Positions 1 through 14,867 of a stretch of DNA of 16,079 nucleotides are shown piece after piece. Below the pieces are notes generated by a model. It saw only the letters and a program-made list of their open reading frames with translations, was not told the origin of the DNA and made no database searches. This DNA comes from Candidatus Bathyarchaeia archaeon. GTDB lineage: Archaea; Thermoproteota; Bathyarchaeia; Bathyarchaeales; Bathycorpusculaceae. Every line of letters begins with the position of its first letter. Position 1 is the stretch's first letter. The position numbers and the translations under genes were made by a program. The DNA lies in the NCBI GenBank assembly GCA_050012755.1, contig JBEKGO010000044.1, forward strand, positions 1 to 16,079, read 5' to 3'.

Positions 1-240
1 AGCTTCTTTTCCGTCCACGAATAGTTTGATAGGCGAGAACGGTCCAGCGCTGATTTCCAAATGATGCTTTTCGGAATTTCCCACGTCCAACTGGAACTTC
101 TTTGGCAATGGCTGAAAGTTTGTTTCATTAATGACTTTTTCGCCATCTACTTCTATCTTGATGTATTTTAGAAGCGCGCTCGCATTAACAATAATGGTAT
201 GTTTTTCAGTCTCTCCTATTTCAAACTTGGCTTTTGTCAT
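1..240 (-). CDS. Small all-beta hypothetical protein with an internal duplication; 3' end lies outside the window; third gene of the ABC operon
   Basis: Not in the ORF track. Hand translation from ATG at 240: MTKAKFEIGETEKHTIIVNASALLKYIKIEVDGEKVINETNFQPLPKKFQLDVGNSEKHHLEISAGPFSPIKLFVDGKEA, open to the window edge. GGAGGAAGG RBS at about 250-258; starts 28 bp after the permease stop. Confidence 0.85.
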   Translation of the reverse strand, partial: MTKAKFEIGETEKHTIIVNASALLKYIKIEVDGEKVINETNFQPLPKKFQLDVGNSEKHHLEISAGPFSPIKLFVDGKEA

Positions 241-268
241 TTTTTTGAACCTTCCTCCTCTAACTTTG

Positions 269-1009
269 CTACTTCCACTTCGTCAATATTTCCTCTCTCT
301 GGAATGTAATTCTGCTGACAAAGAAGACAACAACGGCTATTACTAAGATAACACCTGCCAAAATCAGCAGATTCGTGTCATTGAATGCAAACACTCCAAT
401 TTCAGATGTTATGTATACTCCAAAGAATGGAAGCGCGGCCAACATTCCCATTTGCTGTGCTGTTCGCACATCGTTTACTCTGGATGAGATAATGATATTT
501 AATTCAACGCTAAGAAGACATATCAACGGTGCCACAAGCAAGATCGCCCCAATATGCCAGTTAGGATAGTAAAGATAACCCAGTGTGCTATGCGTCACCA
601 AATCCATGAGCGACATGTATATCACTGAACCAGCATAGATCGCCCCTAAAGGCACGACGAGCCCTGAAATTGTTTTGCCCAACAAGATTTCGCCGTCGGT
701 CATTGGCGTTGCCAGAAGCGGTTCCAAGCTCTTTTGGATCTTCTCTCCCACTAAACTGTAGGAGGCTATAGTTGTGGGAATTATGGCTGATCCTATGAGA
801 AACCATATCGAGAACGCGTCCATAAATCTGGGAAGAGTTAAGGCGGTCATTCCATGGCCGCTGCCAATATGCAGTGCATATTGCACAATCAATGGGAACG
901 CAATTCCCACAACAAGAGGGAAAACAACGGTGATATAGATAACCATAGTCTTCCGTTTGAAGATCTTGAAGTCTTTTGCGGCAACTGCCCAAGCGCTTTG
1001 CAAATCCAT
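269..1009 (-). CDS. ABC-2 type transporter permease subunit
   Basis: About six hydrophobic segments; motif SLVGEKIQKSLEPLLATPMTDGEILLGK is typical of ABC-2 permeases; 3 bp downstream of the ABC ATPase. Confidence 0.92.
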   Translation of the reverse strand: MDLQSAWAVAAKDFKIFKRKTMVIYITVVFPLVVGIAFPLIVQYALHIGSGHGMTALTLPRFMDAFSIWFLIGSAIIPTTIASYSLVGEKIQKSLEPLLATPMTDGEILLGKTISGLVVPLGAIYAGSVIYMSLMDLVTHSTLGYLYYPNWHIGAILLVAPLICLLSVELNIIISSRVNDVRTAQQMGMLAALPFFGVYITSEIGVFAFNDTNLLILAGVILVIAVVVFFVSRITFQREEILTKWK

Positions 1010-1012
1010 TTT

Positions 1013-1927
1013 TTATCCCCTCACAAGCTTGAGATACACATCCTCCAGAGACGAGCCAATCTCTGTTAAGAATTGCACTTGTCCACCTGCAGCTTCAATC
1101 GCCTTCAAAATGGCTGGATTCTCTTTCTCAGGATCATTGACATCGATAAGAAGGCTATTATTAGTTACCTCCGATATTTGAAAGCCGATTTTCTTGACCG
1201 CTTCTACGATTACGTTATCAACATGCTGAAGCTGAACTTTTATCTTTCTACCAGACAGCTTACGCCTTAACTCTTGCGGGGTGCCTGTTGCGATTAGTCG
1301 AGTTTTTAGTATCGCAACCCGGTCACAGATCTTTTCAGCCTCATCCAGAAGATGCGTGTTTAGGAAGATTGTTCTTTTCTCCTTTTTCAGCTCAAGGATG
1401 AAGTCCCTAACCGTCTTAGAAGCTTCCGGATCGAGGCTTGCAGTTGGCTCATCCAAGAATAGGACTTGTGGGTCATGGATGAGGGCGCGGGCTATGGCGA
1501 GTTTTTGCTTCATCCCCTTAGAAAAGGTTCCTGCTGCTACGTTTCTCTTTTCCCAAAGCCCCAGCATCTTGAGAAGGTATTCTATTCGCTCTTTCCTTTT
1601 CTGTACGTCAAGCCTGTAGAATCGACCGTAAAAATCGAGATTGTCATAGGCACTTAGTTCCTCATAGAGCCCGACATTTTCAGTCAGCAGGCCCACCATC
1701 CGTCTTATCTTCTGTTGATCAGCACTATTTCCGACATCGTAATTGCCTATCCTTGCAGTGCCGCTCGTCTTTGATATTAGACAGCAAAGCATTCTGACAG
1801 TTGTTGTTTTCCCTGCGCCATTCGGACCCAGAAAACCGAAGACTTCACCGTCGTTAACATGAAGATCAAGATTGTCTACGGCTGTTAGATCCCCAAACTT
1901 TTTTGTAAGACCCTCAGTATCTATCAA
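1013..1927 (-). CDS. ABC-2 type exporter ATP-binding subunit
   Basis: Walker A GPNGAGKTT, signature FSKGMKQK, Walker B VLFLDEPT, H-loop NTH, C-terminal SLEDVYLKLV; TTG start. Confidence 0.96.
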   Translation of the reverse strand: MIDTEGLTKKFGDLTAVDNLDLHVNDGEVFGFLGPNGAGKTTTVRMLCCLISKTSGTARIGNYDVGNSADQQKIRRMVGLLTENVGLYEELSAYDNLDFYGRFYRLDVQKRKERIEYLLKMLGLWEKRNVAAGTFSKGMKQKLAIARALIHDPQVLFLDEPTASLDPEASKTVRDFILELKKEKRTIFLNTHLLDEAEKICDRVAILKTRLIATGTPQELRRKLSGRKIKVQLQHVDNVIVEAVKKIGFQISEVTNNSLLIDVNDPEKENPAILKAIEAAGGQVQFLTEIGSSLEDVYLKLVRG

Positions 1928-1981
1928 TGCGATTACCCTTTGGACTAAACGTAGCCCATTGTTTGTTAATAAGAGGCTAGT

Positions 1982-2019
1982 GTTTTATAAATAACGTTCC
2001 ACGGGTACAAAATTTGTAC
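1982..2019 (-). promoter_or_regulatory. Candidate TATA box of the ABC operon with an upstream perfect palindrome
   Basis: Minus-strand TTATTTATAAAA at about 1983-1994, about 55 bp before the start; GTACAAA-A-TTTGTAC inverted repeat at 2005-2019. Confidence 0.45.
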
Positions 2020-2020
2020 T

Positions 2021-2191
2021 AGGAAGGGTTATACAAAGGCGCTGGCGGAGAAAAAGACGGGGTTGAAGGAGAAGACTGCACAGTCACTTCACCATTACAT
2101 AGAGCTAGTGCCGGGAGGAAATATGCAAGCTATTGAGCGGGCTCGTCGAAAACTGCGGAGCCTATCAGAGACGGAAAGCCAATCTGTCTAA
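2021..2191 (+). pseudogene. 5'-truncated remnant resembling the last repeat and capping helix of a TPR protein
   Basis: Frame reads RKGYTKALAEKKTGLKEKTAQSLHHYIELVPGGNMQAIERARRKLRSLSETESQSV-stop (TAA 2189-2191), with TPR-like KALA..G...A...Y.EL.P spacing. In-frame stop at 1988-1990 and no credible start or RBS before the motif. Confidence 0.4.
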
Positions 2192-2330
2192 CGGACAACT
2201 ATGATCCGGAAGTCTAGACAACCTACACTTGCAGGGATTAGACTGAAATATCTAAAAGAGCAATAGAATCTGTGCGCGCTTTAATGATTAAGCGTATACT
2301 AGCGGTTCTGATATGTGCTTTTTCTTGGAT

Positions 2331-2379
2331 TTTTCGTGTGGAATTTAAATGTGGGTGTAAATCTAACATCCCGCGCCAT
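2331..2379 (+). repeat. att-like repeat copy 1 (arm plus tRNA 3'-end core ACATCCCGCGCCA at 2366-2378)
   Basis: 42/49 identical, ungapped, to 8531-8579; 13-bp core identical to 3379-3391. Confidence 0.9.
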
Positions 2380-2394
2380 CGCTTTTTTAGGTGG

Positions 2395-3246
2395 TTATTG
2401 TGAGCGTTGTTTGTGGACAGCTAGATATCTTCGGATAAAATAGCTTACGAAGCCTTCTTCTGATCGCTGAAGAGCTTTGTAATAGGATTTTCTTTTCTTA
2501 TATTCTATTATGAGCATAGGATAACCATTTTTCCACAGAATATAATTCATTAGCAGCCTTCCAATTCTGCCGTTCCCATCACCGAACGGGTGAATTTTCT
2601 CGAAAATATAGTGTGCTCTAGCTGCAAGCTCGACTGAATTAAGGTTCGACTGGTTTGTAAAGGCTATGAGTTGCGTTATGAGGTTTGCGACGTTATGCCA
2701 ATCTGACGCCAAGTAAGGGCCTACTCTGACTTGATAATTTCTGAATGCTCCGGCGATGTCAGGTTTTGTTTCTCTAAAAATTTCTTTATGCCATTTCAAC
2801 AGGAGTTGGTCTGAAATTTCTTCTTTTGCTTTCAACATTTCAAAGAAAACTGTTGCATGAGATTCAGTTTCGCGTATATCTCTGATCGGTTTGTTTGGAG
2901 CAATTTTATCTTCCAGTATTAGTCTGGCTTCTTCAAGAGTTATGGTGGATCCTTCAATTGCGTTTGTGTTGTAGGTAAATGCTATTGCTATTTCTTGTAG
3001 CTCTTTTTCTTTGGCTGATGGAGGAGTTTCTTTCCACTCTTTTTGAAAATTGTTTTTTATTTTTTCTAGTTTTTCAAAGAGTGCTTCGTGTGTTTCATGC
3101 ATGAGTTTTGCTTTGATTTCTTCGATGTTGTCAGGGATTTTTTTGCCCAAGTAGAGTTCTTTTGTAATTACTTTTCCTTCTTTTCTGTAGGAATGTTGCA
3201 GATAGAAGTATTTTAATTGCCCTTTTTTTCGCTTAATTATTCGCAT
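2395..3246 (-). CDS. Fic family protein (AMPylase), class II with N-terminal inhibitory motif
   Basis: Canonical Fic motif HPFGDGNGRIGR; inhibitory (S/T)xxxE(G/N) motif TNAIEG upstream; basic N-terminal segment KYFYLQHSYRKEGKVITKELYLGK. Confidence 0.95.
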   Translation of the reverse strand: MRIIKRKKGQLKYFYLQHSYRKEGKVITKELYLGKKIPDNIEEIKAKLMHETHEALFEKLEKIKNNFQKEWKETPPSAKEKELQEIAIAFTYNTNAIEGSTITLEEARLILEDKIAPNKPIRDIRETESHATVFFEMLKAKEEISDQLLLKWHKEIFRETKPDIAGAFRNYQVRVGPYLASDWHNVANLITQLIAFTNQSNLNSVELAARAHYIFEKIHPFGDGNGRIGRLLMNYILWKNGYPMLIIEYKKRKSYYKALQRSEEGFVSYFIRRYLAVHKQRSQ

Positions 3247-3255
3247 CCAGATAGT

Positions 3256-3308
3256 TTACCATTACAAACCATATAAATATTTCATTACAATTCAAAATGT
3301 AATGGTAA
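3256..3308 (-). promoter_or_regulatory. Fic promoter (TATA-like box) bracketed by an 11-bp inverted repeat
   Basis: TTACCATTACA (3256-3266) and TGTAATGGTAA (3298-3308) are exact reverse complements; extra CATTACA at 3283-3289; minus-strand ATATTTATAT at 3271-3280, about 25-30 bp before the ATG. Confidence 0.6.
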
Positions 3309-3343
3309 TGTTCTGACCAGCTTGAAAGAGTGAGTCTCGCCAA

Positions 3344-3391
3344 ACCTGTGGTCGAAAGGCCGCGTAGGTTCAAATCCCACATCCCGCGCCA
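3344..3391 (+). tRNA. Partial, degenerate tRNA: 3' half of a type II (long variable arm) tRNA, Ser-like; probably an att remnant rather than a functional gene
   Basis: ACCTG (anticodon stem 3' strand), variable arm GGTC-GAAA-GGCC, T arm GTAGG-TTCAAAT-CCCAC (one A-C mismatch), acceptor strand ATCCCGC, discriminator G, CCA. No GCGGGAT 5' strand or D arm upstream. G73 with a long arm favours Ser over Leu. Confidence 0.75.
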
Positions 3392-3707
3392 CTCCTTGAA
3401 CCATATAAGTCTTGATTATTGATTATTTATGCAAATAATGCTGAAATCGCTTTTTAATTAATCAACATCCCCCCTGATTGCATAAAACCGCCCACTGTTT
3501 AGATGTCACGCCACTCACTGGAAAAGACTCTTTACCCCATTTGGAAATATGCCCCGTCGAGACCCAGCCTATAATCTTAAAAGTTCATGTCCAACGGGAA
3601 CTAGTGCGTGCGAATTCTATTTCTTATTGCTGGTGCGCTGATGCAAAAATCGAAGCTTTGAAATTTCGAACATTATTTCTTTAGTCCTAGGGATTCGGTT
3701 GTCAAAG

Positions 3708-5258
3708 TTAAAATATCTGTGTCGAGAAAGTTTCGTAAATATTCGATTTATCTAAGATATCGTAGATTCTCTTATGAAACTCAAATAGACTCTCATACTT
3801 CTTTTGATTCTCTTTAACTGGTTGATATTTTTCTGCTGGTCTCATTGTAGCTAAAACAGCCTCGTCAACACTCTTGAATATTCCAGCACCTACTCCTTCT
3901 AACAATGCACATCCCAACGCTGTTGACTCTCTGGCTTCTCGCAATACGGGTACTCCGTAGATATCAGCTTGAATTTGGTTAAAGATTTGGCTCCTCGTCA
4001 TACCTCCAGACACATGCACTTCTTTCAACGGAATACCAAGTTCTTCCATTACTTCCAAATTCTTTTGAATCTCAAAGCTCAAGCCTTCAAAAATCGATCG
4101 TATCACATCATGTCGTGTGTGCCCGAGGGTTAACCCGAAGATTACTCCTCTTGCGTGCGGGTTCCAGTATGGAGCACCTGCGCCGACAAAGTGAGGCAAA
4201 AATATGATTCCTCTGCTACCAACACTAGATGCAGCAGCCTCGCTATCCAATATTTCGTATGGATCGATCCCAACTTTATTAGCGACAAATTTCTCAAGTG
4301 AACCAAATTGATCTCTAAACCACTTATAAACGGAACCCGTAGAGAAAACACTTGCCTCCAGAACCCACTTGCCCGGAACCGCATGACAACTGCAAAGGAT
4401 TCTTCTTTTTGGATCAAAAACAGGCGTCTCTGAGTGCGCCAAGACAAATGTCCCGGTACCAGTGGTAACAACAACGCTTCCCTGTCGAATTACCCCAGCT
4501 CCAACAGCGCTGCATTGCTGGTCTCCTCCTCCGCAGAAAACAGGTGTTCCTTTTGCGAATCCTGTCTCTGCAGCTGCTTTGGCGCTTACGTTGCCAATCT
4601 GTTCTCCTGTAGGATGTACGTCTGGCATTTTCTCCCTGCCTATCTCCAAGCGGGTCAGGAGTGGTTCAGACCAATTACGTTTCCTGATATCAAACAACAT
4701 TGTTCTCGACGCGTTATCCGGACTCGTGATGAATGCATCTGTGAATTTCGCTATCAAGTAATCATGAACCAAAAGAAACTTGTAGGTTTTGTTGTAAATG
4801 TCTGGTTCTTTTTCCATGATCCATCGGATTTTGGGTGCCGAAAAGTACGGGTCAATCGTCAAGCCAGTCGTCTCGTAAACAACTTTTGGTCCAATATTCT
4901 TCTCTATCCAATTACACTGTGGAACTGTTCTTCTGTCTTGCCAAACGATGGCTTTTCGTAATGGGTTAGCATTGGCGTCAATGGGCACTATAGTCTCCCT
5001 TTGGCTTGTCACGCTGATACCTATGATCATGTCCTTTTTTATGCCCTTTTCATCTGCCTCTTTCAATGCCGCTTTTGCAGTTTTGCAGACGCAACTCCAC
5101 CACTCCGCCGCATCCTGTTCAACCCAAGCAATCTTTGGGAAATAGCTGGGGTGCTCTAAGTATTTCTCTGCAACTACATTGCCCTTTGTATCAAAAATAA
5201 CTGTGCGTTCGCCAATAGTTCCAGCGTCTATTACAGCCAAGTAAATGTCGTCTTTCAT
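3708..5258 (-). CDS. FGGY-family carbohydrate kinase (glycerol kinase/xylulokinase-like; substrate-site motifs resemble GlpK)
   Basis: IDAGT, WVEQDA, TSQRET, VWQDRRT, DPYFSAPKIRW, NASRTMLFD, GGDQQ, GTGTF, GAPYWN, VSGGMT. Confidence 0.92.
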   Translation of the reverse strand: MKDDIYLAVIDAGTIGERTVIFDTKGNVVAEKYLEHPSYFPKIAWVEQDAAEWWSCVCKTAKAALKEADEKGIKKDMIIGISVTSQRETIVPIDANANPLRKAIVWQDRRTVPQCNWIEKNIGPKVVYETTGLTIDPYFSAPKIRWIMEKEPDIYNKTYKFLLVHDYLIAKFTDAFITSPDNASRTMLFDIRKRNWSEPLLTRLEIGREKMPDVHPTGEQIGNVSAKAAAETGFAKGTPVFCGGGDQQCSAVGAGVIRQGSVVVTTGTGTFVLAHSETPVFDPKRRILCSCHAVPGKWVLEASVFSTGSVYKWFRDQFGSLEKFVANKVGIDPYEILDSEAAASSVGSRGIIFLPHFVGAGAPYWNPHARGVIFGLTLGHTRHDVIRSIFEGLSFEIQKNLEVMEELGIPLKEVHVSGGMTRSQIFNQIQADIYGVPVLREARESTALGCALLEGVGAGIFKSVDEAVLATMRPAEKYQPVKENQKKYESLFEFHKRIYDILDKSNIYETFSTQIF

Positions 5259-5272
5259 AGGTCAACATCTTA

Positions 5273-6397
5273 CTAAACTTTAAAGTTAAAGCGATATTTG
5301 GTCAAACCTAAATCTGACTGCATTGTCAACATCTCTTTCTGAGTTTCCAGGGAGATCGGTACTCCCTCGACGGCACGGCGCTTATATGCCAGATACTCTT
5401 TTTCTCCTGCAACGTAAATATGATCGATACCTGGCATTTTCTTTGATGCTGCCAGTTCACGAAGCATATCTCCCACTGACTTCTTGAATTTCTCCACCTC
5501 AACGAAAGCCTCAATGTTGACGGCTATGAAGAAGTGACCGAGATCAAAAGGCACTGTTTTTCCGTTGGCAACACCCAGGCAAGCCTTCAAAGCTGATGAT
5601 TGCTGAAGAGCTGAAGACATAATCTCAACAAAGGTCGCATAATTGTAGCCTTTGTATCCTGCCATGTCTTCACCAATCCCTCCGAGTGGCGTGAGCGCAG
5701 CCTCGTCCTTTGTCAAATCTGTCAAAATTTGGCGTGAATCTGTTCGGGATTTTCCGTCTGCTCCAATAACCCATCCCTGTTTTAACTCTTTTTCTATTCG
5801 GGCATAGGTTTCGATTTTACCCCGCTGAATTGTTGAGGTTGCTTGGTCTGCACACCAAGGAAAGTCCCAGTCAGTTGGCACTGCGATACAAAAGGGATTT
5901 GTTCCAAGCATCGGTTCGATGCCCCATGTGGGCGCAATAGACGGCCGAGCGTTGGTTCCGCACATGCCAATCATGCCTTTTTCAGTAGCCATTAGAGAAT
6001 AGTAACCTGCAATCCCGAAGTGATTTGAGTGGCCAACAACAACCATACCAATGCCTACATTCTTGGCTTTTTCGATAGCGAGTTCCATCGCTTTTTTTGC
6101 TGCTACCTGTCCCATTCCGTTGTTGGCATTAATTACTGCTACTCCAGGAGCGTCGCGTTCTATGGTTAGTTTTGTTGTAGGCAGTTGCTGTCCTTTCCTA
6201 ATGCGATCGTAGTACATTTTTAGTCGAGCGATTCCATGTGAATCAATTCCACGTTTGTCGGAAGCTATAAGCACATCCGCTACGATTGCTGCATCAGCTT
6301 TCGGAACTCCGACTCCGCATAAAACGTCGTACATGAAATTTTCGAGCGTTTTTATGTCAACAAGGGCAAATTCTTTGGCTTCAATCAATCTTTTCAC
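5273..6397 (-). CDS. Ldh_2 family NAD(P)-dependent oxidoreductase (type 2 malate/L-lactate, ComC/AllD-like)
   Basis: RGIDSHGIARL, SNHFGIAGYY, LGTNPFCIA, PLGG..GYKG, GHFFIAVN, AGEKE. The ORF-track start at 6445 overlaps the upstream gene; GTG 6397 (after GGGGAG) or TTG 6388 is more plausible. Confidence 0.92.
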   Translation of the reverse strand: MKRLIEAKEFALVDIKTLENFMYDVLCGVGVPKADAAIVADVLIASDKRGIDSHGIARLKMYYDRIRKGQQLPTTKLTIERDAPGVAVINANNGMGQVAAKKAMELAIEKAKNVGIGMVVVGHSNHFGIAGYYSLMATEKGMIGMCGTNARPSIAPTWGIEPMLGTNPFCIAVPTDWDFPWCADQATSTIQRGKIETYARIEKELKQGWVIGADGKSRTDSRQILTDLTKDEAALTPLGGIGEDMAGYKGYNYATFVEIMSSALQQSSALKACLGVANGKTVPFDLGHFFIAVNIEAFVEVEKFKKSVGDMLRELAASKKMPGIDHIYVAGEKEYLAYKRRAVEGVPISLETQKEMLTMQSDLGLTKYRFNFKV

Positions 6398-6423
6398 GCA
6401 CGCTCCCCGGGAATGCCCAATGA

Positions 6424-7359
6424 TTATAGGTGACGGTCGAGCCACGTGATGGCATCCTTCATGACTTCCTCTTTGTTGGTTTCGTTAAAGATCTCGTGGC
6501 GGGCGCCGTTGTACACTTTTATTGACGCATCCTTAATTCCCAGGGAAAAATAAGTCTTGTATAACGCTTGGGCACCTTTACTCATTTTGTTCGAGGGATC
6601 GCAGCCTCCACTCATTATATAAATCGGCAAATCCCTCGGAATGTTCGCTTGTTGCTTGCGCTTGGCGATCTTTATGACCCCTTTGGCTAATTCTGACGCC
6701 GTTCCAGCCTGCGAGATGAACCCGCAGAATGGATCATTTACATATTTTTCGACGACGGCATGATCCCGTGAGAGCCATTCGAATTTCGTGGGCGCCGGCT
6801 CGAAGGGTTTATTGTAAGCCCCAAACGTGAGTTTATCCAAATACGGACTCCTGGTGTCGGCGCCGATCTTCTTGATTTCCCTTGCTATCATTATTGGCGC
6901 AATTTTCCGGATGATAAAGGATTGTTTACCGTTGGTTCCGGTTAGGATCACCCCCTTGATTTCCTTGCCGAATTGTGATATGTAGTCTTGGGCGAGGAAA
7001 GAACCCCAAGAATGGCCGATTAAGAAAACGGGCAACCCGGGATTCTCTTTCTTGATGATATCGGTTAACATCTTGATTTCTTTCACGGTGCCATCCCACC
7101 CGCCCGGTCCAAGCAGCCCTAATTTTTCTACGGTTCCAGCCGTTTTCCCGTGACCGCGGTGGTCATCGGCATACACAATATAGCCTGTATCTGTGAGTTG
7201 CTGAGCGACCCATTCATATCTGCCCGCGTGCTCGCCAAGTCCGTGAGATATCTGAACTGCCGCTTTTGGCGATTCATCTGGGGCCCACTTGTAAACAAAG
7301 ATCTCGACCATATCTTGGTCGGTAAAGGTAAACGTTGACGCTCGCAACTTCAAATTCAC
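6424..7359 (-). CDS. Alpha/beta hydrolase, lysophospholipase/monoacylglycerol lipase-like (Hydrolase_4, PldB-like)
   Basis: HGLGEH, DHRGHG, nucleophile elbow GHSWG, WLSRD, catalytic Asp in GGCDP and His in RHEIFNE. Start may be TTG at 7347. Confidence 0.92.
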   Translation of the reverse strand: MNLKLRASTFTFTDQDMVEIFVYKWAPDESPKAAVQISHGLGEHAGRYEWVAQQLTDTGYIVYADDHRGHGKTAGTVEKLGLLGPGGWDGTVKEIKMLTDIIKKENPGLPVFLIGHSWGSFLAQDYISQFGKEIKGVILTGTNGKQSFIIRKIAPIMIAREIKKIGADTRSPYLDKLTFGAYNKPFEPAPTKFEWLSRDHAVVEKYVNDPFCGFISQAGTASELAKGVIKIAKRKQQANIPRDLPIYIMSGGCDPSNKMSKGAQALYKTYFSLGIKDASIKVYNGARHEIFNETNKEEVMKDAITWLDRHL

Positions 7360-7576
7360 TTCTATTTTAAGTAATCAGTTTATTTACCCTTCACTCGTAT
7401 TAATTAATAACTTTTGCTCAATCGACCGAGGATTTGTTAAAAAATCGCAAATTCGACCACATATTCATACCTAAAATGCAAGAAAATATGGGAAAAGCTC
7501 TTTGTTCTCTGTGGAAGAATGCTGTGAAACGAAGCTATGACCTGGCAACATCTTAACCTTGTAATGTACGCAGTAA

Positions 7577-8311
7577 TCAGTTGGAACTTTTCCAGATTTT
7601 TTTGAATAATAATGTGCCGATTACCCATGCTAGCGCTATTCCCGCGATTTCGTCAACAATATAATGCTGTTTAATGAACAGCGTAGATAGGATTACGCCT
7701 ACGGCTATAACGAATGCTGCAGCCGCCACTGCTTTAGTTGCCTTGCCGGGTCTCACTTTTGCATATTGGAACCATGTGTAGAAGCATATTGTTGATAGGG
7801 CTGCGTGCAAGCTAGGTAAGCAGTTGAAAGAAGTGTCGGTGGCAAAAATATGATAGACTTGGCTTGCCCAAAAATTGCCAACAAGCGGGTGCGCCAGCAG
7901 TTCTTGGCGGTACCAGAAAGTTGAAACAGGAAAGACAATGTAGATGAGGATTGCTATGCCGTTAATTGCCACCAGCGACCAGCCTAGAGCATACCCTTTT
8001 CTGTAATCCACGAATGCGAAGTAAAGCATCGTTAGAATGACAAACGGATAAAACAAGTATAGGTAAAAGACTGCCATTTGTGGAACAAAAGGAATTGCAG
8101 TATCCAAACCTGTTTGCAATCGGAAGCCTGACCCTGCAGGGTACAATTGTCCAGTCCAGTCATACGCAAAAGTGTTCAGCAACAAATAAAAAAGCACAAG
8201 CATCAAAATAACATTGCCAATTACATAGGTCAGATAAACGCTTTTCCTGCTGGACTTGCCCTTGAAAAACACTTTTTCAATCGCATCTTGGAATCTAGCG
8301 TGAAGTCCCAT
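7577..8311 (-). CDS. PAP2-superfamily membrane phosphatase/phosphotransferase
   Basis: Multiple TM segments; motifs NCLPSLHAA and KQHYIVD. Confidence 0.88.
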   Translation of the reverse strand: MGLHARFQDAIEKVFFKGKSSRKSVYLTYVIGNVILMLVLFYLLLNTFAYDWTGQLYPAGSGFRLQTGLDTAIPFVPQMAVFYLYLFYPFVILTMLYFAFVDYRKGYALGWSLVAINGIAILIYIVFPVSTFWYRQELLAHPLVGNFWASQVYHIFATDTSFNCLPSLHAALSTICFYTWFQYAKVRPGKATKAVAAAAFVIAVGVILSTLFIKQHYIVDEIAGIALAWVIGTLLFKKIWKSSN

Positions 8312-8530
8312 GACTTGCTTTTCCCCTTAGCCACCGTTTATGTAAAAGCTGAGTATAAAAGCATAATCAGTCTCGAACTCACAACGTTTTTTTTAGGTTC
8401 AGCTAGTGTTTATCAAGAAAAAATTATGGCTTACCCATTTAGTTTAAAGCCTACGTGTGCTTCAAAACTTGCGGCGCGCATAAACATTTTTGATTGAACC
8501 AGAGGAATTTTGGCTCGCTATTCGCGCGCT

Positions 8531-8579
8531 TTCTCGCGTGAAATTTAAACGTGAATGTAAACCTAACATCCCGCGCCAT
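8531..8579 (+). repeat. att-like repeat copy 3 (arm plus tRNA 3'-end core at 8566-8578)
   Basis: 42/49 identical to 2331-2379, exactly 6200 bp away; all seven differences are transitions. Confidence 0.9.
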
Positions 8580-8852
8580 TCTCCTTTTGATAATTTGAGC
8601 TCTATTTCTGATTATTTATTTTTCGTTTATCCATGAAATCAAACCGCCTGTCTACCCAGTATCCATAATTCTTAAATTTCCAAAAAACAGAGTAGGGCTG
8701 GGAGAAGGCGGGAGAAATAGACTATAATATTGAAATTTCAGTTTTGACTTTACTTGTATCTACAACAGCAGATTCAAAAACACAGTTTTTCAGCAGTAGC
8801 TTGGAACTGCCCCGTCGAATTATCAGGTGGATAGCGGGATTGGGAACAGAAA

Positions 8853-10883
8853 ATGGTAAGAAAAGGTTCAAAAACTGTAATTAGATTTCTTTGTTTGCTC
8901 ATCCTTTCAAGCGTTTTAATAGCTGCAGGAACAACGACTGCAGCCGCTATAGACTGGTGGCCAATGTTCCAACACGATCAAGCTCACACTGGAACCACAT
9001 CCTCTGCAGTACCTTTGACCAACCAAACCCTATGGGTTAAAACACTCGGCGGAGCTGTGCGTTCTGGTTGCGCAGTTCTGGATGGCGTCGTTTACGTTGG
9101 CTGCTTCGGCGGTAACGTTTACGCCCTAGACGCCTATACTGGAGCAACAATTTGGACTTTCTCAGCTGCTGATAGTGTGTGGGGAACATTGGCCGTTGCA
9201 AACGGCAAAGTGTACTTTGGCTCAAACGACGCTCACATTTACTGCCTCGACGCTGGCACGGGCACTGAAGTTTGGAATATGTCGACCAGTGGTCAAGGTG
9301 ACTGGTCTTCAGTTGCTGTTGTAAATAACACTGTCTATATTGGGTCATGCGATGATAACATATATGCTCTCGACGCGGCCACAGGAGCCAAAATATGGAA
9401 TTACACAACAGGGAATCAAGTCCGCGGTTCTCCAGTTGTCTCTAACGGCGTAGTATATGACCTCTCAGAAGACGGAAGTTTTTACGCTTTAGATGCTTCA
9501 ACAGGTGCCAAATTATGGAGTTCACCAACTGGTAACGTGGGTACGTACACGGATTCATCGCCTACAATCGCGAACGGAATAGTCTATATTGGCTCGACCG
9601 ACGATAACGTATATGCCTTCGACGCCGCCACTGGAACGAAGGTGTGGAACTACAAAACAGGTGACGCAGTTTCATCCTCACCTGTGGTCCTTGGCGGAAT
9701 CCTCTACATCGGCTCAGCTGATGGAAACGTATATGCCCTTAACGCCAACACGGGCGGCAAAGTTTGGAGTTACCCGACAGGCGGGCCCGTCTATGCCCCT
9801 CCCGTCGTCGCTGGCAATATAGCATTCATAGGCGCGTACAGCGGAAGCAACCAAATACTTGCGTTAGATGCGGCTACCGGAGCTAAAGTGTGGAGTTACA
9901 CCGCAGGAGAGGTGTTTGCCCAAGCTGCGATAGCAAATGGTGTCCTCTATATCGGGTCATACGACAGCAATCTCTATGCATTCGGAAACCAAACCGAACC
10001 TCTCTCAAACTCCACCCCAAGTCCCACTTCTTCCCCGACACAGCCAGCGGGCGGCGAAGTCACTAAAACCGCGTGGGTTCCAGCGCCTGCAAACGGAGTG
10101 GCAGCATGTGTTGTATCTGTGGGTGCCGCGACTGTGGCTGTCGTCCTTTTTTCAGCTGCGGCAAGTGTTCCTGCCAGTGCTGCTGGCGGGTTTTTCGACA
10201 AAGTAATTACCGAAATTCGAAATCTCATACCCGACACGATTAAGAAGTGGCTCGAAGACTTTGTTGCATCCAAGCGTAAACTCAAAATTGATGAGAAAAA
10301 GGGCTCGCCATTTCTACCAACGAACGCTGAAGTCGCCGTTTATGCAACATCCGTACTCATCTTGACTTTTTCCTTCGCGTACGTTAAAGTTATTAACTTG
10401 GACCAGTTTTTGACGGTCTTACCCACGTTTTTTGCAACAAGCATCCTAGTTGCTCTTACCAGAACTTACATTATATCGCTGTATGCGCGAAGAAAAGGGG
10501 TTTGGACAGAGTATAAACTGTGGTATTTTGGAGCCGCCTTGTTTCTGATATCAAGCGTAGCTCTCAAGTCTCCTTTTTCTTCGCCTACTCGGACCGTGCA
10601 TCACTCACACAACTTCACCGAACGTCTTGGCGGCTTCCTCGCAGTCGCAGGGGTCCTCATAACATTGGGATTTGGCGGCTTGTTCTTCATCCTTCTCAAA
10701 GCCGGCGTCGTCCTAATAGGCGGAACCGGCTTAGCCATGTGCCTGATCGCAGCGTTCTTTGACACCTTCCCCATCGAACCGATGGGTGGCAGAGACATTT
10801 ACAAGTACAACAAGAAGTTGTGGGCGGTGCTTTTCCTTGGAACTCTGGTGTTGTATGCGGCTTGGATAGCACACGTATTCTAA
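8853..10883 (+). CDS. Secreted PQQ-like (BamB-type) 8-bladed beta-propeller fused by a Pro/Ser/Thr linker to a multi-pass membrane domain resembling an inactive M50 peptidase
   Basis: Signal peptide, WWPMFQHD lead-in, eight repeats of W...SP.V.NG.VY.GS.D.N.YALDA.TG, linker STPSPTSSPTQP, then several hydrophobic helices ending FFDTFPIEPMGGRDIYKYN. Confidence 0.9.
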   Translation: MVRKGSKTVIRFLCLLILSSVLIAAGTTTAAAIDWWPMFQHDQAHTGTTSSAVPLTNQTLWVKTLGGAVRSGCAVLDGVVYVGCFGGNVYALDAYTGATIWTFSAADSVWGTLAVANGKVYFGSNDAHIYCLDAGTGTEVWNMSTSGQGDWSSVAVVNNTVYIGSCDDNIYALDAATGAKIWNYTTGNQVRGSPVVSNGVVYDLSEDGSFYALDASTGAKLWSSPTGNVGTYTDSSPTIANGIVYIGSTDDNVYAFDAATGTKVWNYKTGDAVSSSPVVLGGILYIGSADGNVYALNANTGGKVWSYPTGGPVYAPPVVAGNIAFIGAYSGSNQILALDAATGAKVWSYTAGEVFAQAAIANGVLYIGSYDSNLYAFGNQTEPLSNSTPSPTSSPTQPAGGEVTKTAWVPAPANGVAACVVSVGAATVAVVLFSAAASVPASAAGGFFDKVITEIRNLIPDTIKKWLEDFVASKRKLKIDEKKGSPFLPTNAEVAVYATSVLILTFSFAYVKVINLDQFLTVLPTFFATSILVALTRTYIISLYARRKGVWTEYKLWYFGAALFLISSVALKSPFSSPTRTVHHSHNFTERLGGFLAVAGVLITLGFGGLFFILLKAGVVLIGGTGLAMCLIAAFFDTFPIEPMGGRDIYKYNKKLWAVLFLGTLVLYAAWIAHVF

Positions 10884-11065
10884 GTTTGTGCTCAGAACTC
10901 TGTGGTCCATACTGCAGTGAAGCTGTTTCTCTATATGCGGCGTGATTAACGTTCCTGAACGTAAACACCTCCTGACTCTTGAGTGAAAGGTCGAAGCGTG
11001 CGCGCTAATGCATAAACGATTTAAACGTTTGTTTGTTAGAGGAAAGGGTGGTGAGGAGACTTCAG

Positions 11066-11908
11066 ATGAGTATTGAGCTTCCAGAAGCAAAGATCCTCGC
11101 GGATCAAATGAACAAAGTGTTGAAGGGCAAACAAATCACGAGTTATAGTCTTCGAGATTGCGAAAAATTGCAGAAAATTGGGTTCATGAACAGAGATAGC
11201 AAATCCTTCGATCAACTCTTGAACAGAGTAGTCGAATATGTCACGTCCAGGGGCAACTGCATGCGCGTGAAGCTTGATGAGGGAATGAACATGATTCTTA
11301 GCCCTGAATACGGCGGCGAAATTTTTTATCACTCAGGTGAAGGTACGGTTCCAGAGAAGTTTCATGTACGAGTGGATTTTTCCGACAAAACCGCGTTGAC
11401 GGTGAGATTCACCAGTATGGGAGGCATGAGGGTATTGAAGGATGCGGAACTGATAGACTCGTACGTGTTTAAACGAGATTTCAACGCCAAGATTCTTTCA
11501 CCTTTAGATGAGGACTTCACGTTTGAGCGGTTTTCGAGACTCTTATCGAGCGGCAACCGGGCACTCAAACCTCTGCTCGTTGGAAAAGACGCCGTCTTGG
11601 TAGGGTTGAGCAACAGTGCTTTTCAAGATATAATATACAGGGCTAAGCTTCACCCGAAAAGAAAGGCTTCTGAGTTGAATTTGAATGAGCAGAAAGCCCT
11701 TTACAACTCCGTCAAGCTAGTAATTCGAGAAAGACTTCGGTTGAACGGGAAAAACCAGTTCTTAGACTTATATCAGAATCAAGGTCGTTACGTTTCAGCG
11801 ATGGGTCCGAACATGAGAAAAAAGAACTGCCCAGTTTGCGAGTCTCCTATACAGGAGCTAAGCCTTGGCGGAGGCAAAGTATTCGTTTGCCCCAAATGCC
11901 AAGTTTAA
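11066..11908 (+). CDS. Fpg/Nei family DNA glycosylase-like protein (divergent active site)
   Basis: ATG 11066 after GGTGGTGAGG RBS; N-terminal ELPE, H2TH region (LKPLLV...VGLSN...DIIYRAKLHPKR), C-terminal zinc finger CPVC...CPKCQ. Confidence 0.88.
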   Translation: MSIELPEAKILADQMNKVLKGKQITSYSLRDCEKLQKIGFMNRDSKSFDQLLNRVVEYVTSRGNCMRVKLDEGMNMILSPEYGGEIFYHSGEGTVPEKFHVRVDFSDKTALTVRFTSMGGMRVLKDAELIDSYVFKRDFNAKILSPLDEDFTFERFSRLLSSGNRALKPLLVGKDAVLVGLSNSAFQDIIYRAKLHPKRKASELNLNEQKALYNSVKLVIRERLRLNGKNQFLDLYQNQGRYVSAMGPNMRKKNCPVCESPIQELSLGGGKVFVCPKCQV

Positions 11909-12112
11909 GGACCATAAATTATGGTCGAGGAGAGCACGTTAAGAACTGAGACATAGCATTTTGAGAAATGAAACAAGCTTAAAATAATTTCTGACAATGA
12001 GGCGCGCTTTATGAAATTATTTCCAGTTGAGAACGGACAGAATGTAATTAGTAGGGTCAATAGTTTGCCCTCTCTTACCCAAGTTTGTCGTTTGGGACTT
12101 GGTCGCTTATGA

Positions 12113-12616
12113 TTATTGGTGTTGCTTGATGAATTTTGCGAGATTTACGATTTCGAGATCGCCTTTGCATCTGGGACAAATGTTTTGGATTTCAGGTACC
12201 TTTGCTCCGACTTTTATTGGAGCTCCGCAATGGCAGCAGAAGTAAGTTAGGGTTTGTCCTTTCTCTGAGAGGGTTTTAGCTAGGGCAACTGCTTCTTTTT
12301 GTGTTTCAGTTAATTCTTTCTCTCTCTTTTTTGAGGTTCCTTTTTTCTCAGTGGAAAAATTTTTGCAGGTTTCTGCCTCAACAAAATAGTTATTAAACCC
12401 AACCTTCGCAGGCGCTAAATTTTTTCCAGTTTTCTGGCAGGATTCTTCTTCGAAGTGGCCGCAGTCTTCACAGTTCTTTTTCTGTTCATATTCTTTTTGA
12501 AGTTTCCAATAGCAATCTGCGCAATACATTTGGTCTTTACCTTTTATATTCACGGTTAAACCTGCGCCAGAGAAGGATTTCTTGCAACCACCACATTCAA
12601 ACCGCATAGCGTTCAC
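12113..12616 (-). CDS. Cys-rich multi zinc-ribbon hypothetical protein
   Basis: CGGC, CADC, CEDC, CCHC and CPRC pairs; Lys/Glu-rich soluble composition. Start GTG 12616 or ATG 12607. Confidence 0.8.
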   Translation of the reverse strand: MNAMRFECGGCKKSFSGAGLTVNIKGKDQMYCADCYWKLQKEYEQKKNCEDCGHFEEESCQKTGKNLAPAKVGFNNYFVEAETCKNFSTEKKGTSKKREKELTETQKEAVALAKTLSEKGQTLTYFCCHCGAPIKVGAKVPEIQNICPRCKGDLEIVNLAKFIKQHQ

Positions 12617-12815
12617 TTTTGAAAATATTATTCGGCAGGGTTTTATTTATTGTTTGATTAAGAATCAATGTTTTTTTAGGGGATTGTAGCGTTGTTTGGA
12701 TAACCAAACCAAATAATCAGACATGCTGAGAACTATAATTCTTTTAATTTCAAATTGACAACAACTTGATCATTTTAATAATTAATCTTCCAACAATGTT
12801 CTTGGTTAGAAAAAC

Positions 12816-13412
12816 CTAATGAGTTAAGGCTGCGAAATGTGTTACTCCGATTAAAATATACTGAACTGCAATGGCTGCAATAAGCAAAGCCATAACCCTC
12901 GATATCACCAGCGAGCCCGTTTTGCCCAAAAACTTGTAAATTCTACCTATGAACCTAAGAATAACCCATGTCAAACCCAGCACTATTAAAACTGACAGAA
13001 TCGCTGCTTCAATGCCATAAACTTGAAGATTAAATATGGTTGTAGTAATGGCTCCTGGCCCCACGAGCAGCGGAATTGCAATTGGAACTGCACCTAAACT
13101 TTCTGGAGACGAATCAGTGCTATCTCGCGTACCTGATATCAAAATTCTGATAGCAATAATAAGCAGTAATATGCCACCTGCTACCTCAAAAGCATAAATG
13201 GACAACCCAAAAATATTTAGGATTTCTTGACCTGTGAACGCAAAAACAAGCAGCAGAACGACGCCAACCAATGTTGCCGTATTGTAAACTTTTTTTCTCT
13301 GAATTTCTGGAACGTTTTCAGTTAAACCAATGAAAATAGGTATGTTTCCGAATGGATCAACAATGATGAACAAAGCAATAACGGCTTTTCCTAAGTCTAA
13401 AACGAAATCCAC
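12816..13412 (-). CDS. marC: MarC family integral membrane protein
   Basis: LFIIVDPFGNIPIF, F.VAGGILL, VPIAIPLLVGPGAITT, LGKTG..VISRVMALL; six TM segments. Confidence 0.94.
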   Translation of the reverse strand: MDFVLDLGKAVIALFIIVDPFGNIPIFIGLTENVPEIQRKKVYNTATLVGVVLLLVFAFTGQEILNIFGLSIYAFEVAGGILLLIIAIRILISGTRDSTDSSPESLGAVPIAIPLLVGPGAITTTIFNLQVYGIEAAILSVLIVLGLTWVILRFIGRIYKFLGKTGSLVISRVMALLIAAIAVQYILIGVTHFAALTH

Positions 13413-13520
13413 GCAAACATTCTCCAGAGCCTAACCTAACTCGTGTTATTGACTCAATAAAAACATAGCGGACAGCTAAAAAAACAAAAAGACTATTAAC
13501 TAAATATTGCCAAAACAATA

Positions 13521-14426: not shown

Positions 14427-14765
14427 AAGTATTTCGCCTTTTCAGCCGCAAAGAAGCGGTTGATGTGTAATAAGGTTTTTGTGTAAAGCATTATCTGACC
14501 AGTTTTTGATTTCAAAGCTGAAAAAAATTAATTAAACTGCATGTTTCTTGGTTTTATTGAGGATGATTGCGCTTTTTCCAATGTTTTAACTTAAATCTGT
14601 AAATTTGTGCAAAGACTGAAAAAATCCTCTTTTTTCTACGGGTAGGCTCTTTCACTTTTAGGCGCAGCTTTGAACGTTCTTTTAGTATGCGGCTTAATTT
14701 GGTTGAATAATTGGATGAATGGTGTTGTAAAGTGTAATAGTTTGAACAATAGCCTAATAATAAGC

Positions 14766-14798
14766 AAATATGTGTTTCATATGAGCATATTTTAAATA
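14766..14798 (+). promoter_or_regulatory. Candidate amt promoter TATA box with adjacent dyad symmetry
   Basis: TTTAAATA at about 14791-14798; AAATATG (14766-14772) and CATATTT (14786-14792) inverted pair enclosing the palindrome TCATATGA (14777-14784). Confidence 0.4.
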
Positions 14799-14867
14799 TA
14801 AGTCTGTGTAGTTGTATAGTAAAAAATTATTCAACTAAACAAACGTCAAAAAGGATTGAATGAAAAA

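Follow-up and report, generated by a model that had tools for sequence, protein, structure and literature searches.

Introduction

Integrons combine an attI site, attC sites and the integrase IntI; their cassettes are small, mostly carry one gene and no recombinase, and have sites bounded by inverted repeats. The integrase gene adjoins the primary attachment site, the cassette sites are imperfect palindromes that can form hairpins as single strands, and the cassette ORFs share one orientation with respect to the site. Casposons depend on a Cas1 casposase, carry terminal inverted repeats directly at their ends and show a target duplication of 14–15 bp. CIMEs, as described for streptococci in the definition cited here, are flanked by attL and attR, are devoid of integration or transfer genes and occur in tandem at the 3′ end of their target gene, a place at which a further element may integrate beside them (PMC5704250). 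Tycheposons, which form islands in Prochlorococcus, target tRNA 3′ ends; the sections cited here describe repeated integration, by which older elements are displaced inward, together with partial tRNAs in between and niche-adaptive cargo (bioRxiv 10.1101/2020.12.28.424599). For archaeal tRNA-integrated elements, the passages used here report direct repeats that correspond to the 3′ part of the tRNA, tandem re-use of the site, loss of the integrase and, for SSV-type elements, ‘gene capture’ (PMC8371274, PMC6563490).

Here we analysed a stretch of 16,079 nucleotides (the window, on contig C44) from the genome of a Bathyarchaeia archaeon (G000), a MAG of 65 contigs from peat soil. It contains stacked gene modules that end in copies of the 3′ part of tRNA-Ser(GCT), either as a true tRNA fragment or as a diverged 49-nt block. 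Tandem accretion is known from CIMEs and tycheposon islands; the array found here is a variant of it. We consider it probable that the array reflects site-specific accretion of non-autonomous cassettes at tRNA-Ser(GCT), presumably mobilised in trans.

As in CIMEs, the modules of the window keep att-type ends, lack integration or transfer genes and are stacked at the 3′ end of a gene. However, CIMEs are described as decayed bacterial ICEs or IMEs and usually occur once per site, whereas the units found here are archaeal, mostly 0.7–3 kb in size with one or two genes, reach up to four per site, have two arms that are conserved throughout the family and bear no vestige of a conjugation or integrase backbone. 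With tycheposons the array has in common the targeting of a tRNA 3′ end, the repeated integration that displaces older elements inward, the partial tRNAs between stacked elements and a niche-adaptive cargo. In the sections cited, a tyrosine recombinase and replication genes of their own define the tycheposons, and integrase-less parts are regarded as degenerated remnants; in the archaeal host, by contrast, integrase-less units with their own diverged tRNA-like arm are the rule, and no tyrosine or serine recombinase with replication or packaging genes was found among the array ORFs. Small, mostly one-gene cassettes that lack a recombinase, have a conserved site bounded by inverted repeats, are stacked at one site, vary between relatives and carry toxin-like genes (Fic, PIN) recall integrons. 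Unlike in integrons, the attachment site here is a tRNA gene without an adjacent integrase (PF00589, C61 and C44) and the orientation of genes neighbouring the blocks is mixed (36 plus, 21 minus); folding of the junctions gave no significant sign of a hairpin (z −1.45). Described archaeal integrated elements resemble the array in their tRNA 3′ direct repeats, tandem re-use of the site and missing integrase, but those in the passages cited are complete proviruses or plasmids, at least several kb in size, that carry integrase genes or halves thereof; in the parts of the literature on archaeal integration covered here, we met no report of a genus-wide family of small integrase-less cassettes. A casposon was rejected: no Cas1 is encoded among the array ORFs, the inverted 17-mers are separated from the cores by 17 nt and ~89 nt, and no duplication is seen in the outside sequences. 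Among the characteristics of tRNA-targeted elements, we found direct repeats of the tRNA 3′ end, an intact tRNA and an empty site (in G085), and no integrase of the elements' own.

Three tRNA-tail repeats downstream of an intact tRNA-Ser(GCT)

The 13-nt core ACATCCCGCGCCA is located at positions 2366, 3379 and 8566 of the window, always on the plus strand, and no further match with up to two mismatches was found in the window. The chance expectation is 0.24 copies, and three copies were obtained in none of 200 shuffles. Core 2366 is flanked by the start of an ABC ATPase gene (1927) and the stop of a Fic gene (2395), core 3379 by the Fic start (3246) and the stop of an FGGY kinase gene (3708), and core 8566 by the starts of a PAP2 gene (8311) and a PQQ-repeat gene (8853). 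Thus, position, ORF list and sequence all agree with the three direct, intergenic copies described in an earlier sequence-only reading of this DNA. Further claims about the repeats also held. Copies 1 and 3 share a 49-nt block (2330–2378 versus 8530–8578, 42/49 identical), which is an AT-shifted copy of the tRNA-Ser(GCT) 3′ half, and copy 2 closes a tRNA 3′ half, as 3346–3391 corresponds to the last 46 nt of tRNA-Ser(GCT) with 45/46 identical positions. The sole difference from the intact tRNA is one G>A in the T stem; on its own, 3346–3391 was scored as a tRNA neither by ARAGORN nor by Rfam at E≤1. According to Pfam, the repeats part an ABC-2 exporter, Fic, a group comprising FGGY kinase, Ldh_2, hydrolase and PAP2, and a PQQ beta-propeller protein, likewise as proposed.

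An intact tRNA-Ser(GCT) is present at G000:C61:4531-4617 (ARAGORN; Rfam 54.9 bits). Because the last 99 nt of the 5.2-kb contig C61 are the first 99 nt of the window, an overlap that is unique, the tRNA is placed ~517 nt before the start of the window, on the left side, where a cognate intact tRNA had been predicted. The ORFs upstream of the tRNA on C61 are of the PIN, AbrB and wHTH types, judged from their translations. In total, G000 contains five exact cores: that of the tRNA, the three of the window and one in a solitary block on contig C6, which lies apart from the tRNA. The repeats are therefore not scattered genome-wide, a distribution that would have spoken against an array at this site.

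Modules of the window

Module 1 (plus strand) starts outside the window directly after the tRNA, at C61:4618, has an alpha-type left arm on C61 and extends to position 2378, where block 1 ends; counted from the end of the tRNA, it is 2895 nt long. On the minus strand it encodes an 83-aa ORF (window 1–240 plus C61, from the C61–window join), an ABC-2 permease (269–1009) and a DrrA-like ABC ATPase (1013–1927; both Pfam, NCBIfam). Its right end, an attR-type junction, is block copy 1 (2330–2378, plus strand; variant A, GTGGAATTTAAA..GTGGG; nhmmer 63 bits), consisting of a 36-nt P-arm-like part and the core 2366–2378. Module 2, the Fic cassette (2379–3391, minus strand, 1013 nt), carries a Fic/Doc-family gene (2395–3246, minus; Pfam) and ends in the true tRNA-Ser 3′ fragment at 3346–3391 (plus strand), which comprises variable arm, T arm, acceptor strand and CCA and includes the core 3379–3391.

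Module 3 (3392–8578, minus strand, 5187 nt) begins with a beta-type left arm, in which a degenerate inverted 17-mer is located at 3497–3513. Its four genes, all on the minus strand and assigned by Pfam and NCBIfam, encode an FGGY sugar kinase (3708–5258), an Ldh_2-family dehydrogenase (5273–6445), an alpha/beta hydrolase (6424–7359) and a PAP2 phosphatase (7577–8311). When the DNA was compared with 40 relatives, none of the matches listed fell in 3708–7359 (112 weaker matches were outside those listed). Proteins resembling the Ldh_2 protein are from bacterial clusters, a likeness that is no sign of transfer. The right end is block copy 3 (8530–8578, plus strand; variant B, GTGAAATTTAAA..GTGAA; nhmmer 60 bits) with the core 8566–8578.

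A possible fourth module (8579–12112, plus strand) has a beta-like arm after the core and encodes the PQQ-repeat beta-propeller protein (8853–10883) and an Fpg/Nei DNA glycosylase (11033–11908; both Pfam, NCBIfam). No core-like sequence was found in 8579–12112, so that its right end is not recognisable. It is mostly without DNA matches in relatives, the exception being an Fpg homologue that adjoins the array of G055. From 12113 to 16079 follows a conserved chromosomal flank, syntenic with tRNA-Ser in G003, G001, G012, G085 and others at 70–82% identity, with a 167-aa zinc-ribbon-like ORF (ORF12113; 12113–12616, minus), a MarC/NAAT transporter (12816–13412, minus), a 301-aa ORF (13521–14426, minus) and an ammonium transporter (Amt; 14856–16079, plus). 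Pfam, NCBIfam and PHROGs gave nothing significant for the 83-aa ORF, ORF12113 and the 301-aa ORF. The GC content is 0.36–0.39 over Fic and 0.44–0.55 over modules 3 and 4, compared to ~0.41 genome-wide, which is not decisive.

Anatomy of the cassette ends

In 36 copies of the block, the consensus frequency is ~0.9 from −48 to 0 and ~0.35 on either side, so that its bounds are sharp. On the other side of the core, a left arm of alpha or beta type is conserved from +1 to about +108 (11 copies). This arm of ~108 nt ends with an inverted copy of the block 17-mer TCGCGTGGAATTTAAAC, which means that each cassette keeps both attP-like halves. Joined head to tail, a cassette would form a complete attP-like site of ~157 nt with the inverted repeats as its bounds. 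The 17-nt terminal inverted repeats pair in five natural junctions; compensatory changes were absent from these junctions and the fold was not significantly better than that of shuffled sequences (z −1.45). These observations give no clear support to a hairpin recombination site.

The two blocks of the window are only 42/49 alike, whereas copy 1 is 98% identical to a block of G009 and copy 3 is 96% identical to one of G018, which argues for separate acquisition. As the block is alike in many species, it was probably brought in with the elements as attP rather than made by local decay.

Arrays in related genomes

Two to four exact cores on one contig and strand were found in 18/81 genomes, and 26 of the 53 loci with an intact tRNA-Ser contain one to four further repeats. 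At tRNA-Ser(GCT), small recombinase-less cassettes with conserved ends are present in about half of the related genomes examined, and the arrays were seen in one genus of peat and soil Bathyarchaeia. Bounded modules in those loci (n=48) have a median size of 1.9 kb; their cargo includes transporters, redox enzymes, Fic, PIN, protease-inhibitor pairs and more. An unoccupied site was seen in one genome, G085, in which 170 nt lie between the tRNA and the ORF12113 homologue and MarC that come next.

Relatives differ by gain, loss, replacement and reordering of cassettes at the cores, and the homology of recurring cassettes ends there. The Fic cassette recurs in 13 other loci with 70–93% identity, at array positions 1, 2 or 3. 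A DUF2807 cassette, 90.9% identical over 1314 nt, follows a block in G018 and the tRNA in G062, and the homology of a papain+chagasin cassette (89.3% identical between genomes) stops where the next left arm ends. G003 and G071 share 93% identity as far as the last tRNA base, then carry unrelated cargo, with homology returning at the blocks. Hence gene order is not conserved across the cores, and breaks lie at cores or arms. The integrase-less, cassette-like array proposed in the sequence-only reading is thus supported: a missing cognate tRNA, genome-wide scatter and conserved order across the cores, the three observations that were to count against it, were all looked for and not made. Interspecies copies are about 87–93% identical and not near-identical, so that no very recent transfer is documented.

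Search for an integrase and a free element

The suggestion that an integrase might lie to the left of the window was not borne out by the DNA available: none is encoded in the window or on the 5.2-kb C61, and neither C61 nor C44 has a PF00589 match. G000 contains ten PF00589 matches, and the cognate integrase for block-type cassettes could not be identified among these ten proteins. Using them in tblastn against 66 tRNA-Ser loci, we obtained matches in G076, which has an intact gene, and in G002, in which the locus is decayed. Pfam searches with 135 ORFs from the arrays and with 46 from four loci revealed no other tyrosine or serine recombinase. The G076 integrase is a 281-aa PF00589 protein whose gene starts 22 nt from a 24-nt core; an integrase predicted from its position to use the tRNA-Ser(GCT) site thus exists in the genus. 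The nearest G000 protein is 48% identical to it and is encoded beside tRNA-Ser(CGA), of which the 3′ end differs. The G076 integrase element stands in tandem with a block cassette, the only hint toward CIME-type mobilisation, in which a unit decayed from an ICE or IME would move after accretion with an element that has an integrase.

A block joined to a left arm was not found on other G000 contigs (nhmmer, blastn), and the block pattern gave no match in viral contigs. A helper adjoining the tRNA was considered and rejected as a general partner: a 637-aa protein and a HerA-like pair are encoded upstream in G003, G071, G018 and G046 and were not found in G000. To survey excision, short Logan contigs of four peat runs were compared with window positions 1–13000. 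No core-to-core or circular junction occurred among the short contigs listed, which bears neither way on excision. Loose ends were located at 2330, 3346, 3391, 8530 and 8578; at 3346 they carry letters of the tRNA anticodon arm in 4/4 runs. Because such ends carry flanks that occur in the arrays of other species, e.g. ACTTTGCAATTG as in G003 and G071, they are not assignable to the G000 population.

Alternative explanations

It is possible, if rather unlikely, that the modules are decayed autonomous elements or plasmids from which integrase and backbone were deleted after integration, with inert repeats and later differences arising via homologous recombination between the repeated blocks, the arms and paralogous cargo. 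The part of PMC8371274 used here describes archaeal cases in which the integrase was lost once the element had integrated, and tandem use of a single integration site; in G002 an integrase pseudogene with a frameshift and stops lies directly after tRNA-Ser. However, this locus and that of G076 are the only ones of the 66 with a match, and no integrase match was found within 2 kb of blocks in 58 further stretches. Degenerate cores and blocks are common in relatives, indicating that part of the arrays is decaying; yet both cassette ends are still conserved and sharply bounded while adjoining DNA is unalignable, and 19 of the 48 bounded modules are at most 1.5 kb with one or two intact genes. The failure to find a helper in G000 fits decay, whereas the lipocalin and Fic cassettes, which occur in G043 in the order opposite to that in G019, require either that units without an integrase were inserted independently or that extra steps took place.

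We regard it as improbable that the block is a functional cis element derived from the tRNA, such as a terminator, promoter or protein-binding site, in a flexible island kept by homologous recombination. The block starts with a T run, and its first position is 23–41 nt past the stop of a plus-strand gene in 13 of the 57 cases in which an ORF adjoins, but in all loci examined blocks are situated downstream of the tRNA and in its orientation. They terminate in the exact tRNA core, and homology between genomes breaks off at them. The TTTAAA in the block presumably resembles an archaeal TATA box; nevertheless, an inward promoter was rejected because neighbouring genes at 67 distinct block contexts have mixed orientation (36 plus, 21 minus, 10 without a neighbouring ORF). 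Moreover, 15 of the 18 inverted 17-mers found in 1.14 Mb are sited 88–112 nt after a core, a fixed spacing that fits arm-type sites.

An assembly or binning artefact, with a chimeric contig joined via the repeated 13-mer or block, is very improbable, for even though G000 is a 65-contig MAG with a break 517 nt after the tRNA and core 3 was bridged by none of the Logan contigs listed, independent contigs from other runs bridge core 1 (X1, 1972–2964) and core 2 (X2, 3257–3819; X4, 3077–3543), and equivalent arrays are present in single-contig genomes such as G003.

Discussion

In the reading that we favour, accretion of non-autonomous cassettes, the 3′ end of tRNA-Ser(GCT) would serve as an integration hotspot (attB) in the genus, and three bounded insertions, probably with a fourth, would be stacked head to tail, with the tRNA on one side and the conserved MarC–Amt flank on the other. 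The junctions would be attR-type scars, each composed of an element-side arm and the 13-nt core, i.e. the 3′ acceptor strand of the tRNA plus CCA. Two kinds of arm may be distinguished, the true 46-nt tRNA fragment of the Fic cassette and the 36-nt AT-shifted copy of variable and T arm in the block. We infer that the cassettes are inserted, and perhaps excised, in trans by a tyrosine integrase whose gene lies at another place, either in the chromosome or on a helper element. They would then not be dead remnants but akin to cis-mobilizable elements or to cassettes. More tentatively, and with a chance that we judge to be limited, the locus could be a tRNA-anchored, integron-like platform of one- or two-gene cassettes, each with a ~157-nt site made up of block, 13-nt core and left arm and bounded by inverted repeats; an off-site tyrosine integrase would capture, excise and reshuffle the cassettes at tRNA-Ser(GCT).

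Bathyarchaeia are abundant and uncultured, and their modes of gene exchange are poorly known. The tRNA-Ser(GCT) locus provides a defined hotspot that is recognisable by sequence. Even with inert cassettes it is a clear record of serial integration, usable to date and order acquisitions in the genus. If the cassettes are mobilised in trans, it would represent, in archaea, what integrons or CIMEs are in bacterial gene capture, and genetic tools could be built on its attB/attP pair and on a candidate family of integrases. Should the integron-like platform prove true, it would constitute a standing gene-exchange mechanism throughout an entire genus of uncultured archaea from soil.

A tRNA-Ser gene as the probable source of the core repeats

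The sequence-only reading had described three direct intergenic repeats, a tRNA 3′ half at the second of them and a block shared by the other two, and all of these features were confirmed. The 13-mer ACATCCCGCGCCA, the 3′ end of tRNA-Ser(GCT) and hereafter the core, occurs on the plus strand at 2366, 3379 and 8566, in all three cases between genes. By chance 0.24 copies would be expected, and none of 200 shuffled sequences contained three. Copies 1 and 3 each close a 49-nt block on its 3′ side (2330-2378 and 8530-8578), and the two blocks agree at 42/49 positions. The 46-nt stretch that terminates in copy 2 (3346-3391) matches the 3′ part of tRNA-Ser(GCT) save one base; by itself, this stretch was called as a tRNA neither by ARAGORN nor by Rfam at E≤1.

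The source genome, G000, comprises 2.41 Mb in 65 contigs, and the window is the entire contig C44. We found five exact cores in this genome: the three in the window, one in an intact tRNA and one in a solitary block on contig C6. The intact tRNA-Ser(GCT) is located on contig C61 (4531-4617; ARAGORN; Rfam tRNA, 54.9 bits) and reads in the direction of the three repeats. Since the final 99 nt of C61 recur as the start of the window, and nowhere else in the assembly, the tRNA lies ~517 nt left of the window, where it had been predicted. An integrase, which had been suggested for the same region, was found neither on C61 nor in the window; the 10 PF00589 matches of G000 are all on other contigs.

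The first 1500 nt of C61 carry a dispersed repeat family (~150-400 nt, dozens of copies over many contigs) flanking a PIN/AbrB-type pair, an assignment read from translations. This repeat coincides with the ends of contigs C46, C55 and C60, where it probably interrupts the assembly. Metagenome runs containing the window stretch came from peat, wetland and soil.

Anatomy of the array

Gene order was derived from Pfam and NCBIfam annotation and the join of C61 to C44. Module 1 (2895 nt) runs from the tRNA-Ser end to 2378 and consists of an alpha-type arm (see below), an 83-aa ORF, an ABC-2 permease, a DrrA-like ATPase and block 1. Module 2 (2379-3391, 1013 nt) holds a Fic gene followed by the tRNA fragment. 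Module 3 (3392-8578, 5187 nt) contains a beta-type arm, an FGGY kinase, an Ldh_2 dehydrogenase, a hydrolase, PAP2 and block 3. The stretch after it encodes a PQQ-repeat protein and an Fpg/Nei glycosylase and has no recognisable right end. The flank starts at 12113 with a 167-aa ORF (ORF12113) and continues through a MarC/NAAT transporter and a 301-aa ORF to Amt.

The 83-aa ORF (window 1-325 region and the C61 end), which has no family name, shows 83-95% DNA identity to many relatives (95% in G009, 93% in G021, 92% in G010), above the ~70-78% of the adjoining transporter genes. Together with the ABC-2 exporter it forms a three-gene unit that several genomes carry in multiple copies at places other than tRNA-Ser. 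The Fic protein (2395-3246) has 'mobile mystery protein B' as its top NCBIfam match (42.8 bits, under the 124.4-bit cut-off) and also matches PHROGs families of unknown function (1e-33).

A conserved pair of arms at the cassette ends

An alignment anchored at the CCA end shows the block to be a copy of the tRNA from the variable arm through the T arm to the acceptor strand, shifted towards AT and identical to the tRNA in the last 13 nt only. For instance, GTGGG-TGTAAAT-CTAAC in the block corresponds to GTGGG-TTCAAAT-CCCAC in the tRNA. Across 36 copies from 26 loci, consensus frequency was ~0.9 from −48 to 0 and ~0.35 beyond both borders. The diverged form is common to many species. Sub-variants A (GTGG..GTGGG) and B (GTGA..GTGAA) coexist, one of each in the window, and the two window blocks are nearer to blocks of other species (98% and 96%) than to one another. 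The block is therefore taken to have entered with the inserted DNA as the putative element-side arm of attP, and not via local duplication or decay.

The DNA after the cores is recurrent as well, in two related types, alpha (TTTCCAAATTCAGCC...) and beta (..CTCCTTTTGCCAAATAG...). Alpha arms are conserved from +1 to ~+108 and then drop (n=11). This left arm terminates in an inverted copy of the block 17-mer TCGCGTGGAATTTAAAC, which was located 88-112 nt past a core in 15 of 18 matches across loci totalling 1.14 Mb. The window has a degenerate copy at 3497-3513, 106 nt past core 2. Where cassettes abut, block, core and left arm form a ~157-nt unit bounded by inverted repeats. The single-strand fold of this unit was not significantly better than that of shuffles (z −1.45), and the inverted repeats are therefore read as putative protein-binding arm sites rather than a hairpin. 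Some tRNA-Ser genes and blocks (the tRNA locus L029 on G018:C5; blocks in loci L028, L038, L050 and L093) end in ...CCCGCGCTT, with no encoded CCA. These ends go with the beta-type flank and ...CGCGCCA ends with the alpha type; the two flanks look like alleles of one downstream sequence.

Blocks were also observed outside the arrays. The solitary full block on G000:C6 (75823-75872, minus strand, 64 bits; locus L034) is far from any tRNA-Ser and sits at a synteny break, ~75-110 nt past the end of homology to the ilvC region of relatives. Further solitary blocks were found on G015:C8, G076:C12 and G009:C238. The latter is identical to a 6446-nt public contig (L105) stored in a bacterial MAG record and probably mis-binned; all other matches were from Bathyarchaeia. 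At G000:C38 (9548-9620), block-like ACGCGTGGAATCTAAAC GTGTATCTAAATCT precedes a different 11-nt 'core' and an alpha-like flank TTTTTTCCAAATCAGCC; this may be a related site with another specificity or a decayed junction.

Cassettes recur in different arrays of the genus

The 13-mer was present in 71 of the 81 genomes of the genus, 18 of which carry 2-4 copies on the same strand of one contig. We fetched 66 loci and scanned them with a block profile. Among the 53 loci with an intact tRNA, 27 had no further repeat in the sequence covered, 13 had one, five had two, seven had three (including G000) and one had four. Bounded modules (n=48) had a median length of 1.9 kb, with 19 of ≤1.5 kb and 37 of ≤3 kb.

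An empty site is seen in G085, where the tRNA is followed by 170 nt and then by a homologue of ORF12113 and MarC. G003 and G071 share 93% identity over 6.6 kb running to the last base of the tRNA; past it, the cargo of the first and second cassettes is unrelated and the blocks are again homologous. A DUF2807 cassette (90.9% over 1314 nt) lies after a block in G018 and after the tRNA in G062, and homology stops at both cores. For a papain and chagasin cassette shared by G095 and G063 (89.3%), homology ends where the next left arm ends. Fic cassettes (70-93%) occupy array position 1 in G066, G068 and G064, position 2 in G000 and G043, and position 3 in G018, G080, G022 and G003. Lipocalin and Fic cassettes occur together (87-92%) in reversed order in G043 and G019.

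Recombinases are rare among the cargo

When the 10 integrases of G000 were used as tblastn queries, only two of the 66 loci gave matches. G076 encodes an intact 281-aa PF00589 protein, starting 22 nt from a 24-nt core, in a 7.2-kb element in tandem with a block cassette. G002 has an integrase pseudogene right behind the tRNA and a frameshifted full-length gene 11.6 kb further. The 10 integrases and the G076 protein had no match in 58 further stretches of public contigs, from genomes as well as metagenomes, that hold the blocks with up to 2 kb on either side; several of these stretches overlap one another or stem from genomes counted above.

Pfam searches of 135 array ORFs and 46 ORFs from four fetched loci revealed Fic, lipocalin, papain with chagasin, DUF2807, PNPOx, SnoaL with Pirin, ABC-2 exporters, flavodoxins, dehydrogenases, HNH and, in the arrays of relatives, PIN, AAA_15 and HEPN-AbiV. 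Other recombinase-type matches were limited to an IS200-type fragment and one DDE transposase.

Members of the G076 integrase family are widespread, with E≤1e-30 matches in 64 of 81 genomes. The closest G000 relative, at 48% identity, neighbours tRNA-Ser(CGA), which has a different 3′ end. In G076:C13 (L040, locus coordinates 8132-9018) the 281-aa frame is open through the att core, and ~20 codons past the core, on the tRNA side of the element, there is an in-frame ATG. attP may lie within the gene, as in SSV-type integrases, although translation from an internal start 8 codons past the core would keep the gene intact.

Origin and mobility of the cassettes

Site-specific insertion at the tRNA 3′ end as the origin of the array is well supported, and we regard it as very probable. 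The cassettes as observed are non-autonomous. We moderately favour the reading that an integrase encoded elsewhere still moves them, because the two att arms are conserved with sharp borders, the cassettes are small, hardly any integrase remnants occur and the same integrase-less cassettes were independently placed in different genomes. The main alternative, a graveyard of decayed elements reshuffled via homologous recombination, appears rather unlikely in the light of these features. Counting against cassettes still being moved are the many degenerate cores in relatives and the 87-93% identity of cassette copies, which is short of near-identical; nor was a helper integrase found. Excision junctions were not seen in short Logan contigs, and contig loose ends at repeat borders derive from co-occurring relatives.

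Tandem re-use of one att site and integrase loss are known in archaea (PMC8371274, PMC6563490), integrase-less att-flanked CIMEs and accretion in streptococci (PMC5704250), and stacks split by partial tRNAs with degenerate remnants in Prochlorococcus tycheposon islands (bioRxiv 10.1101/2020.12.28.424599). For Bathyarchaeia, the passages covered of PMC10848311 mention viral integrases only, and no description of this tRNA-Ser locus was seen in open-access text searched for integrases, tRNA and mobile elements of Bathyarchaeia. In contrast to the known kinds, integrase-less cassettes of one to two genes are here the rule and not the exception, they have a family-wide arm pair in common that includes a diverged tRNA-like arm, and the host is an uncultured archaeal genus. 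In these archaea, an integrase encoded elsewhere would move non-autonomous cassettes at the tRNA-Ser 3′ end.
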